Assembly (NCBI GenBank): GCA_026413965.1 | Contig: JAOAJY010000004.1 | Coordinates: 1-54,928 of the forward strand | Direction of reading: 5' to 3' | From: Candidatus Micrarchaeota archaeon | Lineage (GTDB): Archaea > Micrarchaeota > Micrarchaeia > Anstonellales > Anstonellaceae | DNA length: 54,928 nt | Shown: positions 9,772-15,700 of the stretch, in pieces | Layout of the letters: every line of letters begins with the position of its first letter | Numbering within the stretch: the stretch's first letter is position 1 | Translations under genes and position numbers: made by a program | Notes under the pieces: generated by a model | Told to the model about the DNA's origin: nothing | Database searches by the model: none | What the model saw: the letters and a program-made list of their open reading frames with translations, nothing else

Positions 9772-9873
9772 GGGGCCGTGGGCTAACCTGGTATGCTACT
9801 AGGTTCGGGAAAATTGGCAAATCTGCCGATTTTGGAAAACCTAGCGATCTGTGTTCAAATCACAGCGGCCCCA
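9772..9873 (+). tRNA. tRNA-Pro(CGG) with 29-nt intron at 37/38 (9810-9838)
   Basis: Acceptor GGGGCCG/CGGCCCC, anticodon stem CTAGG/CCTAG around TT-CGG-G, T arm CTGTG-TTCAAAT-CACAG. Canonical BHB: TTCG pairs with TGGA, two 3-nt bulges, 9-bp intron stem AAATTGGCA/TGCCGATTT. TTTATAAG box upstream; CCA not encoded. Confidence 0.93.
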
Positions 9874-10518
9874 TCTTATTCCAACTTTCGGGCAAAGCTT
9901 CTCAATGGGGCAGCGGTTGCAGGCAGGTCTTCTTGCCACGCATACCGCCCTTCCGTGGTGGACAAACAAATCGGATATCTTAAGCCAATATTTTTTTGGA
10001 AGAAGCCTCATTAGGTCTTGTTCAATTTTTTCAGGGGACGAGTGCTTTGTCCATCCAAGCAGGCGGCTTATTCTGGTCGCATGGGTGTCCACAGGGACTC
10101 CCTCTATTATGCCATATGCGTTGCCCAGCACAATATTTGCGGTTTTTCTTCCAACTCCGGGCAACTCCAGCATCTGCCGCATGCTCTTTGGCACCCTGCC
10201 GCCGTGCTTTTCGGCTATGATGCGGCATGCCTCCTTTATGTGCCTTGCCTTGCTTTTGTAAAATCCTGCCGAGCGTATGCATGCCTCAAGCTCTCGCAAA
10301 TCAGCGCCTGCGAAATCCTCTGCAGTCTTGTACCTTGAAAACAAGGCAGGAGTTATCATGTTCACCCGCGCGTCTGTGCATTGGGCAGACAAGATGGTGG
10401 CCACAAGAAGCTGGAGCGGAGTTTTATAGTCCAAAGAGCATTTTGCCTCAGGATAGGCGGCAAGGAGCTTTTTCACTATCTTCAAGGCGCGCCTTCTTTT
10501 CTCCTGCTGGCTTTCCAT
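9841..10518 (-). CDS. nth: Endonuclease III (HhH-GPD DNA glycosylase with 4Fe-4S cluster)
   Basis: LLVATILSAQCTDARVN, LPGVGRKTAN, PVDTH, and the Cys cluster CVARRPACNRCPIEKLC. Confidence 0.97.
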   Translation of the reverse strand: MESQQEKRRRALKIVKKLLAAYPEAKCSLDYKTPLQLLVATILSAQCTDARVNMITPALFSRYKTAEDFAGADLRELEACIRSAGFYKSKARHIKEACRIIAEKHGGRVPKSMRQMLELPGVGRKTANIVLGNAYGIIEGVPVDTHATRISRLLGWTKHSSPEKIEQDLMRLLPKKYWLKISDLFVHHGRAVCVARRPACNRCPIEKLCPKVGIRWGRCDLNTDR

Positions 10519-10568
10519 CGTCCATGTTCCATCGGCACATTTTAAAGAAGTTAATCCTACAATAATGC

Positions 10569-10839
10569 GGGCCCGTAGCTCAGTTTGGATAGAGCGGCAG
10601 ACTTCTATCCCTAGGGGGAACGAAGAAAAACCTTCTGTCCCCCTGAGGGTTCACCCCCTGCCTGAAAGCAGAAGGGTGTGGAAGCTGTGGGGAACGAAGA
10701 AAAACCTTCTGTCCCCCTGAGGGTTCACCCCCTGCCTGAAAGCAAAAAGAAATGGATTTGCTGGAATGATAATGGGCTTGCCCTCTTGCCCAGCACGGAA
10801 GCAATCTGAAGGTCGTGGGTTCAAATCCCACCGGGCCCG
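10569..10839 (+). tRNA. tRNA-Arg(TCT) with 196-nt intron at 37/38 (10608-10803)
   Basis: 5' exon GGGCCCGTAGCTCAGTTTGGATAGAGCGGCAGACTTCTA and 3' exon ATCTGAAGGTCGTGGGTTCAAATCCCACCGGGCCCG give a 75-nt cloverleaf. BHB central helix CTTC (32-35) pairs with GAAG (10798-10801), with 3-nt bulges. TTTTAAAG box upstream. Confidence 0.9.
10615..10744 (+). repeat. Two identical 56-nt direct repeats inside the tRNA-Arg intron
   Basis: GGGGAACGAAGAAAAACCTTCTGTCCCCCTGAGGGTTCACCCCCTGCCTGAAAGCA at 10615-10670 and 10689-10744 (period 74 nt). Confidence 0.97.
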
Positions 10840-10914
10840 CTTGCAAGCGGTTGGATTTTATATATTTTGAGCCCATATTGGCTTGGCTATTTTGGGAAGC
10901 GGAAGGTAGGTTTT

Positions 10915-12716: not shown

Positions 12717-15700
12717 ATGGAGCAGAAAGGAAAAGACCCTGAAATTTCCGAATACCTGCTTTCCCTGAAAGGTCAGCTTGAAAAGGCTTTTTCGGTTGCT
12801 GAAAAGGCGCGAGAGAAGAAATTCGACCCCTCCCTTTCAGTTGAAATAAAGCCTGCGGAGGATGTGGCTGCGCGGGTGGAGGGGATTGTGGGTCCAGCAG
12901 GCATCTCCACGATAATAAGGCAGCTGGAGGCAGAGGGGCACAGCAGGGAAATTATTGCCCACATGGTGGCAAAAAAAATCGCCCGAGGCCAGATATGCTC
13001 TGGGGACAAGCTCTATCTTATAGAGCAGGCGGTGCGCACCGGGGTGGGAATCCTGACTGAGGGTGTTCTGGTTGCGCCAACAGAGGGAATCTCCTCCTTC
13101 CAGATAAGGCAAAATCCAGACGGCAGCGACTATCTTGCCATATATTTTGCAGGCCCCATCCGCTCGGCAGGCGGCACGGTGGCAGCCCTTGCGGTGGTTT
13201 TGGGGGATGTTGCGCGCAGGGAAGCAGGCGTAGGGGATTTCAGGCCAACCGACACTCTAGTCGAAAGGTATGTGGAGGAGATAGATGTCTATGGAAGCCG
13301 CTCTGCCCACCTGCAGTACAGGCCGCCTGACGAAGACATCAGGCACATTGTGCGCTTCTGCCCAGTCTGCATAGATGGGGACCCTACTGAAGAGCAAGAA
13401 GTCTCGGTGCATCGCGACGTGCCAGGAATACCTTCAAATCGCGTGCGCAGCGGGATTGCGCTTGTCATCTGCGAGGGAATAGCCCAAAAAGCCCCGAAAG
13501 TCCACAAATACACAAGGAAGATAAATCTTGACTGGAATTGGCTGGAGCCAATAATAAAAGTGAAAAGCAAGGAAGGCGGAGCTTACCAGCCAAAGCCGGA
13601 TTTCCGCTATCTTGAGGAATCGGTGGCAGGAAGGGCGGTTTTTGCCTACCCGTCAGCAAAAGGCGGCTGGCGCCTGCGCTATGGCAGAACCAGGGCAAGC
13701 GGAATAATGGGCAAGGCGGTGCATCCAGCCAGCATGGAGGTTCTGGATTCCTTTTTGGCAGTAGGCACCCAGATGAAAGTTGAAAGGCCGGGCAAGTCAT
13801 GCATTGTGACCCCCTGCGACACCATCATGGGCCCAATCGTGAAGCTCAAAGACGGCTCTGTGGTGCATATTTCCTCCCAGGAGGAAGCCAAGCGCCTCAA
13901 GAGCCAGATAGAAAAAGTGCTTTTCCTTGGCGACTTGCTGGTTTCAGTGGGGGATTTTGCGAAGTCCAACCATCCTCTTCTTCCAGGGGCATGGTGCGAA
14001 GAAAGATACGAGGCTGAGGCGAAAAAAGCCGGGCTGCAGGCGGTGAAGCATTCCCTCTCAGCAGGCGAGGCAATCTCCATAGCCAAGAAATACGGCATCC
14101 CCCTGCATCCATCCTACACATACTTTTGGCACGACATAAGCCAAAGCCAGCTGCGCGAGCTTGCGCTCTGGCTCCGGACAGGCAAGCCGATTTACAGCCT
14201 GCTTAGGCTGGAGAGCTTTGAGCTTGAGTTCTCGCCTGCCAAATCGGTCCTTGAGGAGCTTTGCGTGCCGCACAGCGTGGACAAGGGGAAAGTGTGCATA
14301 CCAGGAGAGCATGCGTTCGCCCTTCTTAAGACCATGGGCATTTTGGTGGACAAAAAGCTCACAGGCGAGAAATTCGACTCCTTGTTTGACGAAAAGAAGC
14401 CTGTCCTTGAGCTTTTGGGCTCATTGTCTGGGATGAGAATCGCCGCAAAGGCGCCAACCTACATAGGCTCCCGCATGGGAAGGCCGGAGAAAGCCAGGGA
14501 GCGCAAAATGAAGAAAAGCGTCAATGTCCTTTTTCCCGTCGGGACTTTTGTAGACAAGAACGCGTCAATAACCAAAGCCTACTACCGCCTGAAGCAAAGG
14601 GGTGAGCGCGAAGGAAGGGGCGTGGAAGTGGAGATAGCCAGAATGCGCTGCAGGGTTTGCGGCTCCACAACACATTTTTTGGGGTGCATTTGCGGAGGGC
14701 ATTGCGTCCCTGAGCGGGCATGCGTGAAGTGCGGAAAGCCGACCAAATACCAATCCTGCCCATCATGCAAAATAGGCGCTGAATATTGGTCAAAAAGGTT
14801 CGTGGATATTGTCCGGCTTTTTGAGAGGGCATGCGAAAGGTGCGGCGTCTTGCCTCAGGAAATCGAGGATGTGAAAGGCGTTGAGGGGCTTTTCTCAGAG
14901 ACAAAGATGCCGGAGGCGATAGAGAAAGGGGTTCTTAGGGCAAAGCACAAAGTCTATGTTTTCCGAGACGGGACATGCCGCTTTGACGCCACCGATGTCC
15001 CGCTGACGCATTTTCGCCCATCAGAGATATCTGTGCCTGTGAAGCGGCTTCACGAGCTGGGCTACACGAAAGACGCCTCAGGAAAGCCTCTGGAGAGCCC
15101 AGACCAAATAGTGGCCCTCAAGCCGCAGGATATAATACTCTCAAAAGCCGGCGCGAAATACCTTTTTTCTGTCTCAAAATTCATAGACGAGCTTCTGGTC
15201 AAGCTTTACGGGATGGAGCCTTTTTATATGCTTGAAAGCGAGGAGGGGCTGATAGGGCATCTTGCGATTGGGCTGTCGCCCCACACGTCAGCAGGGGTTC
15301 TATGCAGGATAATAGGCTTTACTGATGCGCATGTTGGCTTTGCCCATCCGTATTTCCACTGCGCAAAGCGCAGAAACACCGACGGGGATGAGGACTCTGT
15401 GATACTCCTTATGGACGGGCTTCTGAATTTCTCGCGGGCGTTCCTGCCTGCAAGCCGCGGAGGGACGATGGATGCGCCCTTGGTCTTGACCACAGAAATC
15501 AACCCAGAGGAGATAGACGACGAGGTCCATTCCATGGAGGCCTGCCAATCCTATCCTCCAGAGCTTTACCAGGCTGCTGACCGCTTCGGCTCCACATCAG
15601 AATTGCAGCTTGAGACTGTCAAAAAAAGGCTTGGCAAGCCTGAGCAGTACCATTCGCTTGGCTATACTCATGAGACTTCTGACATAGCCGCAGGCCCGCA

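Follow-up and report, generated by a model that had tools for sequence, protein, structure and literature searches.

A predicted protein-spliced intron in a Micrarchaeota tRNA-Arg(UCU) gene and the tRNA-linked repeat module that it contains

The interrupted tRNA-Arg(UCU) gene

This analysis concerns a tRNA-Arg(UCU) gene and its 196-nt intron in a contig of a Candidatus Micrarchaeota archaeon (GenBank assembly GCA_026413965.1, contig JAOAJY010000004.1); the whole contig of 54,928 nucleotides, read on its forward strand, is referred to as the window, and positions are those of the window unless another contig is named (Table 1). The source genome is designated G000 (0.77 Mb, 87% complete, ~50% G+C); other G-numbers denote related genomes, C-numbers denote contigs, the window being C23, and L-numbers denote inspected loci of a repeat family, termed module E, to which the body of the intron belongs. 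When 10569-10607 and 10804-10839 were spliced in silico, a clean 76-nt cloverleaf with the anticodon UCU was obtained, and four relatives (G021, G007, G010 and G017) were found to possess an intronless orthologue with the same sequence as the joined exons (...GGCAGACTTCTAATCTGAAGG...), which fixes the splice register at position 37/38. A first-pass annotation, made from the letters of the window, had placed a tRNA-Arg(TCT) gene with a 196-nt intron at 10569-10839, and the cloverleaf and the intronless orthologues bear it out. In its intron mode, ARAGORN also found the gene and a 196-nt intron, but it placed the intron 2 nt off and called the tRNA Gly(UCC); the gene was not detected by ARAGORN without this mode, nor by Rfam. 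Since standard finders miss or mis-call such genes, the tRNA complements of these small genomes are under-annotated.

A second, intronless tRNA-Arg(UCU) gene, next to which the interrupted copy might be silent, was looked for in the source genome, and no second gene for this tRNA was found in the 87%-complete assembly. As the present copy is the sole one and AGA is common (9.2 per 1000 codons), the interrupted gene must work. Of the 22 tRNA genes that ARAGORN found in this genome, at least 12 contain introns. The genome has one strong match to the splicing endonuclease family PF01974 (C11:116862-117113, within a 441-aa frame), and an RtcB ligase, checked in this genome only, is encoded at C26:19770-21071; the endonuclease, EndA, was found in 23 of 23 genomes of the genus. 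Because the source genome encodes both enzymes, excision of the intron is expected. The endonuclease is taken to be of the type of the Archaeal Richmond Mine Acidophilic Nanoorganisms (ARMAN), with broad specificity and an assumed three-unit architecture; this broad-specificity type is outlined in the abstract of Fujishima et al. 2011 (PMC3239211).

Table 1 Features at and around the interrupted tRNA-Arg(UCU) gene (window positions)
Feature	Positions	Strand	Basis
Putative TATA-box-like archaeal motif TTTTAAAG	10540..10547	+	read from sequence; centre ~25 nt upstream of tRNA position 1
tRNA-Arg(UCU) exon 1, positions 1-37	10569..10607	+	cloverleaf after splicing; 87-97% identity to orthologues
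Bulge-helix-bulge, 5′ half: CUUC 10602-10605 (pairs with 10798-10801) and 3-nt bulge UA/U (slash, 5′ splice site)	10602..10608	+	constrained fold; same geometry in all orthologous introns
Intron, 196 nt, canonical 37/38 site	10608..10803	+	fold; orthologue comparison; ARAGORN intron mode
Unit 1 hairpin HP1: arms CCCUAGGGGG / CCCCCU-G-AGGG, G10645 bulged, 20-nt loop 10619-10638	10609..10649	+	model R1, 64.4 bits, E 6e-16; covariation; fold
Perfect 56-nt direct repeat, copy 1	10615..10670	+	repeat search
Linker UUCACCCCC (family motif YUCACCCCC)	10650..10658	+	conserved in nine orthologous introns; near-invariant in alignments A1 and A2
Unit 1 second hairpin: CACCC/GGGUG around CUGC-CUGAAA-GCAG; family-variable	10650..10682	+	folds
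GGAAGC, internal copy of the 3′ splice-site motif (cf. 10797-10802)	10680..10685	+	sequence; minimum free energy fold
Perfect 56-nt direct repeat, copy 2; equals module E unit 2 without the outer CCCUA arm	10689..10744	+	repeat search; model R1, 29.7 bits
Extra segment of ~41 nt in copy-2 tail, closed by GCUGG (10760-10764) / CCAGC (10791-10795); not a third unit	10757..10797	+	sequence; family model
Bulge-helix-bulge, 3′ half: GAAG and 3-nt bulge CA/A (slash, 3′ splice site)	10798..10804	+	constrained fold; orthologous introns
tRNA-Arg(UCU) exon 2, positions 38-73, discriminator G10839	10804..10839	+	cloverleaf; orthologues
Predicted terminator-like hairpin CCGCTTGCAAGCGG, then T-rich tail	10837..10860	+	sequence

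The splice motif

[quoted passage not shown] The motif had been described in the first pass as a proper CTTC/GAAG BHB; its helix and both 3-nt bulges were confirmed, but the outer helix between the intron ends is limited to 1 bp, so that the motif is not a strict hBHBh′. A local hairpin, HP1, abuts the 5′ bulge, making this a relaxed BHB. In 11 of the 11 element-bearing Arg(UCU) introns, HP1 starts exactly 1 nt after the splice site, and the same spacing was seen in every intron copy that was inspected; the 5′ bulge is therefore exactly 3 nt long and HP1 stands in place of the outer BHB helix. When the fold was forced to the cloverleaf and the BHB, it reached -105.6 kcal/mol, as compared to -110.1 for the minimum free energy (MFE) fold, a cost of 4.5 kcal/mol.

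The tandem repeat in the intron

By repeat search and by count, the intron contains two perfect 56-nt copies at a period of 74 nt (93% identity over 68 nt), followed by 18-nt tails of which 8 of 18 positions are identical when counted by hand, exactly as first described; Tandem Repeats Finder reported nothing at the locus. The GCTGG/CCAGC-closed stem noticed near the intron end is also present, as the closing stem of the ~41-nt segment at 10757-10797. Two finer details of the first-pass description were not sustained, namely, a third, degenerate unit at 10763, to which the family covariance model gave no match, and a GGG-UUCA-CCC mini-hairpin, which is lost in variants where GGG is replaced by CGG, CGU or GUG, and which competes with the outer arm of HP1. 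In unit 2, the second hairpin is degenerate.

Several features of the sequence bear on how the two copies arose. Deletion of the ~41 nt (10757-10797) from the second tail lifts the tail identity from 8/18 to ~13/18 (hand count), and we infer that an ancestral one-unit intron of ~79 nt ended at the GGAAGC of 10680-10685. The identical 56-nt cores are best read as a recent tandem duplication. They are not a sign of selection on the whole unit, because nine orthologues share only 35% identity in the loop, which accounts for a third of the core.

A 21-nt portion of the extra segment (10774-10794, GGGCTTGCCCTCTTGCCCAGC) has a perfect match elsewhere in the source genome (C11:169633-169653), in intergenic DNA right after a stop codon and upstream of a putative pyrB, and may represent another small portable hairpin.

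Structure and conservation of module E

Comparison across genomes defined module E as three parts in succession: HP1 (CCYUAGGGGG, a variable loop of ~20 nt, and CCCCCU-R-AGGR), then the linker YUCACCCCC, and then a second hairpin that varies. The helix of HP1 has 10 bp and a single bulged purine, and its loop measures 18-21 nt. When 28 copies were aligned with MAFFT, 99.6% of the HP1 cells were paired and compensatory changes occurred in four pairs, which was reached by none of 500 shuffles; the variants include CCCUA/UGAGGG, CCGUA/UAACGG, ACGUA/UAACGU and CACUA/UGAGUG. For 56 distinct copies, aligned by fitting to the model (an alignment that leans towards the structure), 98% of the cells were paired and 5 of the 10 pairs covaried, the outermost pair being C-G 32 times, A-U 17 times and G-C 4 times. 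The second hairpin has a variable stem and a loop that often carries GMAA(C); its support was moderate (median z of -1.2 over 83 copies), and it was therefore not accepted as a firm family feature.

Pairwise identity among the nine orthologous Arg introns was 82-88% in the HP1 arms and 91% in the linker, against 35% in the loop and 39% in the next 7 nt. The same contrast between regions was seen at an orthologous site away from tRNA genes (L099/L100), and the consensus arms are kept even in genomes with a single locus (G012, G021 and G022). The constraint on arms and linker everywhere suggests recognition by some factor; it is to be noted that splicing geometry accounts for the helix, but not for the linker.

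A covariance model of the hairpin and linker (R1) matched every one of the 23 genomes of the genus (1-22 copies per genome, ~144 in all) and 41 of 176 genomes, in 14 of 48 genera, of the order, while no match was obtained outside the order among 401 genomes sampled from the phylum. Within the genus, 9 of the 23 genomes contained the exact motif at the intron start (UCCCUAGGGGG-N20-CCCCCUGAGGGUUCACCCCC), and all of 38 other relatives lacked it; among 185,579 GTDB species genomes it occurred only in metagenome-assembled genomes of Micrarchaeota, and it was absent from IMG/VR. In Rfam 15, the window had no match at gathering scores, and the E-value mode gave only chance-level matches; a full-text literature search returned no description of such a module in Micrarchaeota. 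As a repeat family, module E is limited to a single order of Micrarchaeota and is associated with tRNA genes.

Genomic contexts of module E

About 75 loci of module E were inspected by eye, and the following counts refer to these. Approximately 88% of the copies are tied to tRNA genes: 18 lie in T-loop introns, 16 in anticodon-loop introns, 24 in the trailer or just behind the discriminator (1-3 nt), 6 in antisense orientation beside the 3′ end of the tRNA, and 2 are otherwise tRNA-linked, leaving 9 that are not. The hosts include Arg, Leu, Gly, Pro and other tRNAs, at position 37/38 and in the T-loop. In the T-loop introns, E begins 0-3 nt after GGUUCAA and the intron ends in ...UGAAAAUCC, which gives the layout of T stem, bulge, UUCA:UGAA, bulge and HP1. 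In the source genome itself, five further copies directly follow the discriminator of other tRNA genes (one on C5, three on C21, one on C24), each with a full unit and then a 5′-truncated unit, and their loop sequence differs from that of the Arg intron.

Tandem copies are the usual form in this family, and arrangements of two units recur in trailers, in T-loop introns and in the Arg intron of G012. In G009, a complete genome of 0.8 Mb, several different tRNA genes (L031, L010 and L035) are interrupted in the T-loop by introns that contain one or two E units and measure 180-220 nt, more than the range published for archaeal tRNA introns; because these reach such lengths, the 196-nt Arg intron is typical for the family. 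Split tRNA genes were considered in G009 and rejected, since the 3′ exons lie 180-220 nt downstream, i.e., behind long T-loop introns.

Flanking duplications accompany a number of the copies. Several have beside them a duplicate, of 15-19 nt, of the 3′ end of the tRNA, or one of tRNA nucleotides 1-12. Of the six antisense copies, four are followed by a duplicated tRNA end of 15-19 nt. Away from tRNA genes, two tandem E copies stand at the 5′ end of uvrA in G019 (L014/L086, C1:390257-390435), each after a duplicate of the first 43 nt of the open reading frame (ORF), with a period of 118, and the ORF after the last copy is intact; other non-tRNA copies are located right after stop codons or between direct repeats of 18-25 nt.

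Some individual loci deserve a separate description. At L021 (G009 C12, ~19.5 kb), about six E units are arrayed antisense, just downstream of a minus-strand tRNA gene, and the array abuts the promoter of a divergent protein gene. At L130 (G144 C29), the tRNA is followed by E and then by two more copies of its last 16 nt (ATCCCGGGCGGGCCCA); such 'spare tails' could be possible alternative 3′ exons. Lastly, a second small repeat is nested in E between YUCA and CACCCCC in the source genome (C24:21479-21528, minus strand), at L126 (G025) and at L137 (G019); it is laid out as hairpin A, UCUGA and hairpin B, an example being GCATCAAGCGAAGCTTGATG-TCTGA-TGCATTTTCGCAAGAAAATGCGCAT, and its core of 17 nt, GATGTCTGATGCATTTT, is found again at loci in several genomes.

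History of the Arg(UCU) intron

The glycosylase gene that flanks the tRNA is syntenic across the genus and the downstream genes are so in most genomes, and therefore the Arg(UCU) locus is orthologous across the genus. A search for orthologous tRNA-Arg introns revealed a whole series of states at this one site. The four intronless genomes have been mentioned; three others (G003, G016 and G009) have a short, unrelated intron, seven have one unit (80-91 nt), G014 has 1.5 units (133 nt), and two have two units, these being G012 (180 nt, period 63) and G000 (196 nt, period 74). In a tree of the flanking glycosylase, G000 falls outside a twelve-genome clade (support 99/98) that includes G012, and most simply the two dimers would be independent events.

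Interpretation

Considering these results jointly, we find it probable that the locus is a working tRNA-Arg(UCU) gene with a protein-spliced 37/38 intron that is a recent tandem dimer of an order-confined, tRNA-tied module resembling the repetitive extragenic palindromic (REP) sequences and miniature inverted-repeat transposable elements (MITEs) of bacteria. On the comparative evidence, the gene is thus predicted to function although interrupted by an archaeal protein-spliced intron, the body of which is a tandem dimer of E. The pre-tRNA would be cut at the two bulges that flank CUUC/GAAG by the endonuclease of the genome, and RtcB would join the exons and probably circularise the 196-nt intron. 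In the DNA, nearly the whole of the ancestral one-unit intron (unit plus GGAAGC) would have been duplicated in tandem, recently, and the ~41 nt would have been added to the second tail after the duplication. For module E itself, the most likely nature is that of a REP/MITE-like repeat, non-autonomous and directed at tRNA genes, which would be tolerated where tRNA processing removes it from the RNA, while recognition by some factor would hold its arms and linker constant. Antisense copies and flanking duplications argue for events at the DNA level, and the patchy distribution, the variable copy number and the loops, near-identical within a genome but different between genomes, argue for recent spread or concerted evolution.

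Several observations weigh against this explanation. A mobilising enzyme was not found, as the E-rich genomes G000, G009, G016 and G003 lack Y1 transposase, tyrosine integrase and reverse transcriptase alike. Strong conservation of the unpaired linker extends to the orthologous non-tRNA site (L099/L100) and to the single-locus genomes, and selfish DNA explains this no better than would a functional RNA or a site of protein binding. The unconstrained MFE fold pairs the anticodon loop with the internal GGAAGC, and, because a canonical outer helix is lacking, cleavage relies on the assumed broad specificity of the endonuclease. Finally, the duplication is known from the assembly alone, splicing and circle are predicted, and the tree is that of one protein with 219 columns.

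Two routes of mobility were tried and rejected. A repeat derived from REP-associated tyrosine transposases (RAYT) or from IS200/IS605 was dismissed on the absence of the Y1 transposase family (PF01797) from the same four genomes, and retro-mobility, in the manner of short interspersed nuclear elements, on that of RVT_1 from 20 of the 23 genomes, all E-rich ones included.

A bolder reading is possible, although we would not call it probable. In it, E would be a previously undescribed class of element dedicated to tRNA genes, a structured unit of ~65-90 nt that enters the anticodon loop, the T-loop and the 3′ end. Its own hairpin would supply the outer helix of the splicing motif, and its arms and linker would bind a protein, either an RNA-binding factor or an enzyme that mobilises the element; introns, trailers and 'spare tRNA tails' would be states of one element that can change into each other. 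If this is true, a sense insertion in a loop would be spliceable at once, which would provide the missing DNA-level mechanism of intron gain in archaeal tRNA genes.

Alternative explanations

The first alternative is that E is a host-beneficial RNA, either a trans-acting small RNA or a protein-binding one, that uses tRNA promoters and processing (RNase Z, EndA). Plant tRNA-snoRNA genes and the box C/D RNA in the archaeal tRNA-Trp intron are RNAs made through tRNA promoters and processing, and by analogy E might be released in a like manner. Every one of the 23 genomes of the genus has at least one copy, which is always tRNA-linked in the single-copy genomes; the module always starts 1-3 nt from an RNA cleavage site, the second hairpin often has the GMAA(C) loop, and the single-stranded linker is conserved to 91% at orthologous sites. 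Nonetheless, within the order only 41 of 176 genomes have E, in 1-22 copies, no Rfam family matches it, and the antisense and protein-gene-end copies, with flanking duplications of 13-43 bp, resemble DNA insertions. Since the variable loop is not conserved, it is also not a guide for a conserved target. We regard a beneficial RNA as unlikely.

Williams reportedly described, in 2002, that tRNA-targeting integrases use sublocations in the anticodon loop, the T-loop and the 3′ end, and the sites of E match these. E could accordingly be read as the attachment-site (att) remnant of integrase-driven elements that enter tRNA genes, introns arising upon landing in a loop. The duplicates of tRNA ends and of nucleotides 1-12 beside several copies would fit, as would the tyrosine integrase genes (~400 aa) that start ~90 nt downstream of tRNAs with E in a T-loop intron at L134 (G005 C1), L135 (G017 C105) and L136 (G015 C29). 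However, integrase is absent from G000, G009, G016, G003 and G012, and 11 of the 23 genomes of the genus are without any; attR, a displaced 3′ exon, was found neither for the integrase-adjacent loci nor at the Arg(UCU) locus; the repeats of an integrated element in G019 exclude E; and within 20 kb of the source genome's trailers the tRNA end is not repeated. This makes an att origin rather improbable. At the same three integrase-adjacent loci, a GGCACGTGTGTGCC-like palindrome lies between the tRNA and the integrase gene.

The first-pass annotation had offered a different purpose for the gene, as the host of a stable, modular circular RNA whose cores are kept identical by selection, since the circle would need two equal modules. 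Part of this view holds: the intron is real, and its circularisation is plausible from the presence of RtcB and by analogy, as excised archaeal BHB introns commonly become circles. The constraint on arms and linker and the recurrence of two-unit arrangements may likewise be counted in its favor. A gene dedicated to such a circle is another matter. Intronless, one-unit and 1.5-unit alleles occur at the same orthologous site, the two-unit genomes G000 and G012 are not sisters in the glycosylase tree, the second unit lacks the outer arm and has a degenerate second hairpin, and the module is also found in linear 3′ trailers and in antisense copies. Selection for identical cores fails on several of the same grounds, viz. 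the order-wide family in other introns and trailers, the recurrent two-unit forms, the dimers in non-sister genomes, and the free drift of the loop between species to 35% identity. Overall, a dedicated modular circle appears improbable.

That the tandem duplication is an assembly artefact, the true intron having one unit, is very unlikely: short perfect repeats are open to mis-assembly, but the two copies have different tails and unique junctions, the 56-nt repeat is below the usual read length and large k-mers, and two-unit introns and trailers of the E family occur in independent assemblies of other species. The weakest candidate, box C/D guide RNAs, draws on two CUGA motifs per unit and a sub-threshold Rfam match to plant snoR41 (10678-10783; 26.2 bits versus a gathering score of 40, E 0.013), but we give it almost no credence, as there is no C or C′ box (the aligned 'C box' reads GUGGGGA, and the sole near-C box, AUGAUAA at 10766, is outside the units), no C/D′/C′/D architecture even with one mismatch per box, a change of the first CUGA to CUAA in ~40% of the family members, and a conserved stem and linker where the guide regions upstream of CUGA should be.

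Three narrower candidates were also rejected. A C/D RNA built from the near-C box at 10766 and the exon CUGA at 10806, with C32 at the methylation position, allows no terminal stem, and no counterpart of the segment was seen in the orthologous introns. A self-cleaving ribozyme at the tRNA 3′ end (of the hepatitis delta virus-like, hatchet or hammerhead kind) has no Rfam match; the 'CUGA' position varies between A and G, and the fold is two consecutive hairpins with no pseudoknot. Mimicry of helix 45 of 16S rRNA with the anti-Shine-Dalgarno tail (AUCCGUAGGGG...CCUGCGGAUAGAUCACCUCC versus AUCCCUAGGGGG...CCCCCUGAGGGUUCACCCCC) was set aside when a loop-deleted profile missed the 16S 3′ end at E <= 100; the likeness is kept as a weak lead for the linker only.

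Comparison with known systems

Like other archaeal BHB introns at 37/38, the Arg(UCU) intron has the canonical position, two 3-nt bulges and a 4-bp helix by the anticodon stem, would be processed by EndA and RtcB, and leaves a normal tRNA from its exons. It differs in its length, as archaeal tRNA introns range from 11 to 129 nt in a 2014 review (PMC4090602), in the local hairpin that serves for the outer helix, and in having a repeated, conserved module instead of an idiosyncratic body.

The 'large-scale tRNA intron transposition' of Thermoproteales (Fujishima et al. 2010), which in the summary given by the same review has no known mechanism, offers another parallel. As summarised there, very similar introns occupy non-orthologous tRNA genes at different positions, a behavior that E shares; unlike those families, E is found in Micrarchaeota, has a covarying hairpin with a conserved linker, forms tandem arrays, and also sits in 3′ trailers, in antisense position and, with duplications on its flanks, at the ends of a few protein genes. 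ARMAN / Ca. Micrarchaeum, whose disrupted tRNA genes and three-unit epsilon2 endonuclease are the topic of PMC3239211, belong to the same phylum and likewise have multi-intron tRNA genes, T-loop introns included, and an endonuclease in a long frame (441 aa here), whereas a conserved, repeated intron module goes unmentioned in the abstract of that paper.

The box C/D RNA of the euryarchaeal tRNA-Trp intron and the RNase Z-processed, tRNA-linked RNAs resemble E in that a structured RNA in an intron or behind a tRNA would be freed by tRNA processing; E, in contrast, has no C/D boxes, no target complementarity that is conserved, and a multi-copy, patchy distribution. The closest working analogy for E is a REP/MITE-like repeat dedicated to tRNA genes. 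With REP sequences, bacterial interspersed mosaic elements (BIMEs) and MITEs, it shares short, conserved, imperfect palindromes, species-specific variants, tandem clusters, a position just after genes and a non-coding nature; unlike them, it has no terminal inverted repeats with a fixed target-site duplication, strongly prefers tRNA genes and RNA-processing sites, and abounds in genomes without RAYT/Y1.

Gain of introns by archaeal tRNA genes is an open question on which the E family bears. Within a single genus, intron gain, loss and duplication can be compared directly: at one orthologous site the intron is absent or has one or two units, and the module is further present in introns of the T-loop, in trailers, in antisense copies beside duplicated tRNA ends and, rarely, as insertions at protein genes. 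The E intron also presents a concrete RNA substrate for a broad-specificity endonuclease, with a hairpin placed 1 nt past the splice site.

Neighboring genes and other tRNA and rRNA observations

Next to the tRNA gene stand a minus-strand HhH-GPD glycosylase gene (9841-10518), a UPF0147 gene, and a third gene that combines a DNA-polymerase subunit B domain with a metallophosphatase domain and is read as a likely PolD small subunit. A minus-strand ORF of 98 aa that runs across the locus (10580-10876) has no Pfam match. Some 700 nt upstream of the tRNA-Arg, at 9772-9873, the intron mode of ARAGORN called a tRNA-Leu(CAA) with a 29-nt intron. In the G000 assembly, the 23S gene is absent and 16S is present only as a 3′ fragment; in the 16S 3′ region, on the minus strand of C3 at ~13640-13760, an insert of ~50 nt (CTAAGAGCTTTGAAAGCTGGCGCTTTTCAAAATTTGCCAGCCAAGCTAGCA) stands just before AATCGTAACAAGG and may be an rRNA intron.

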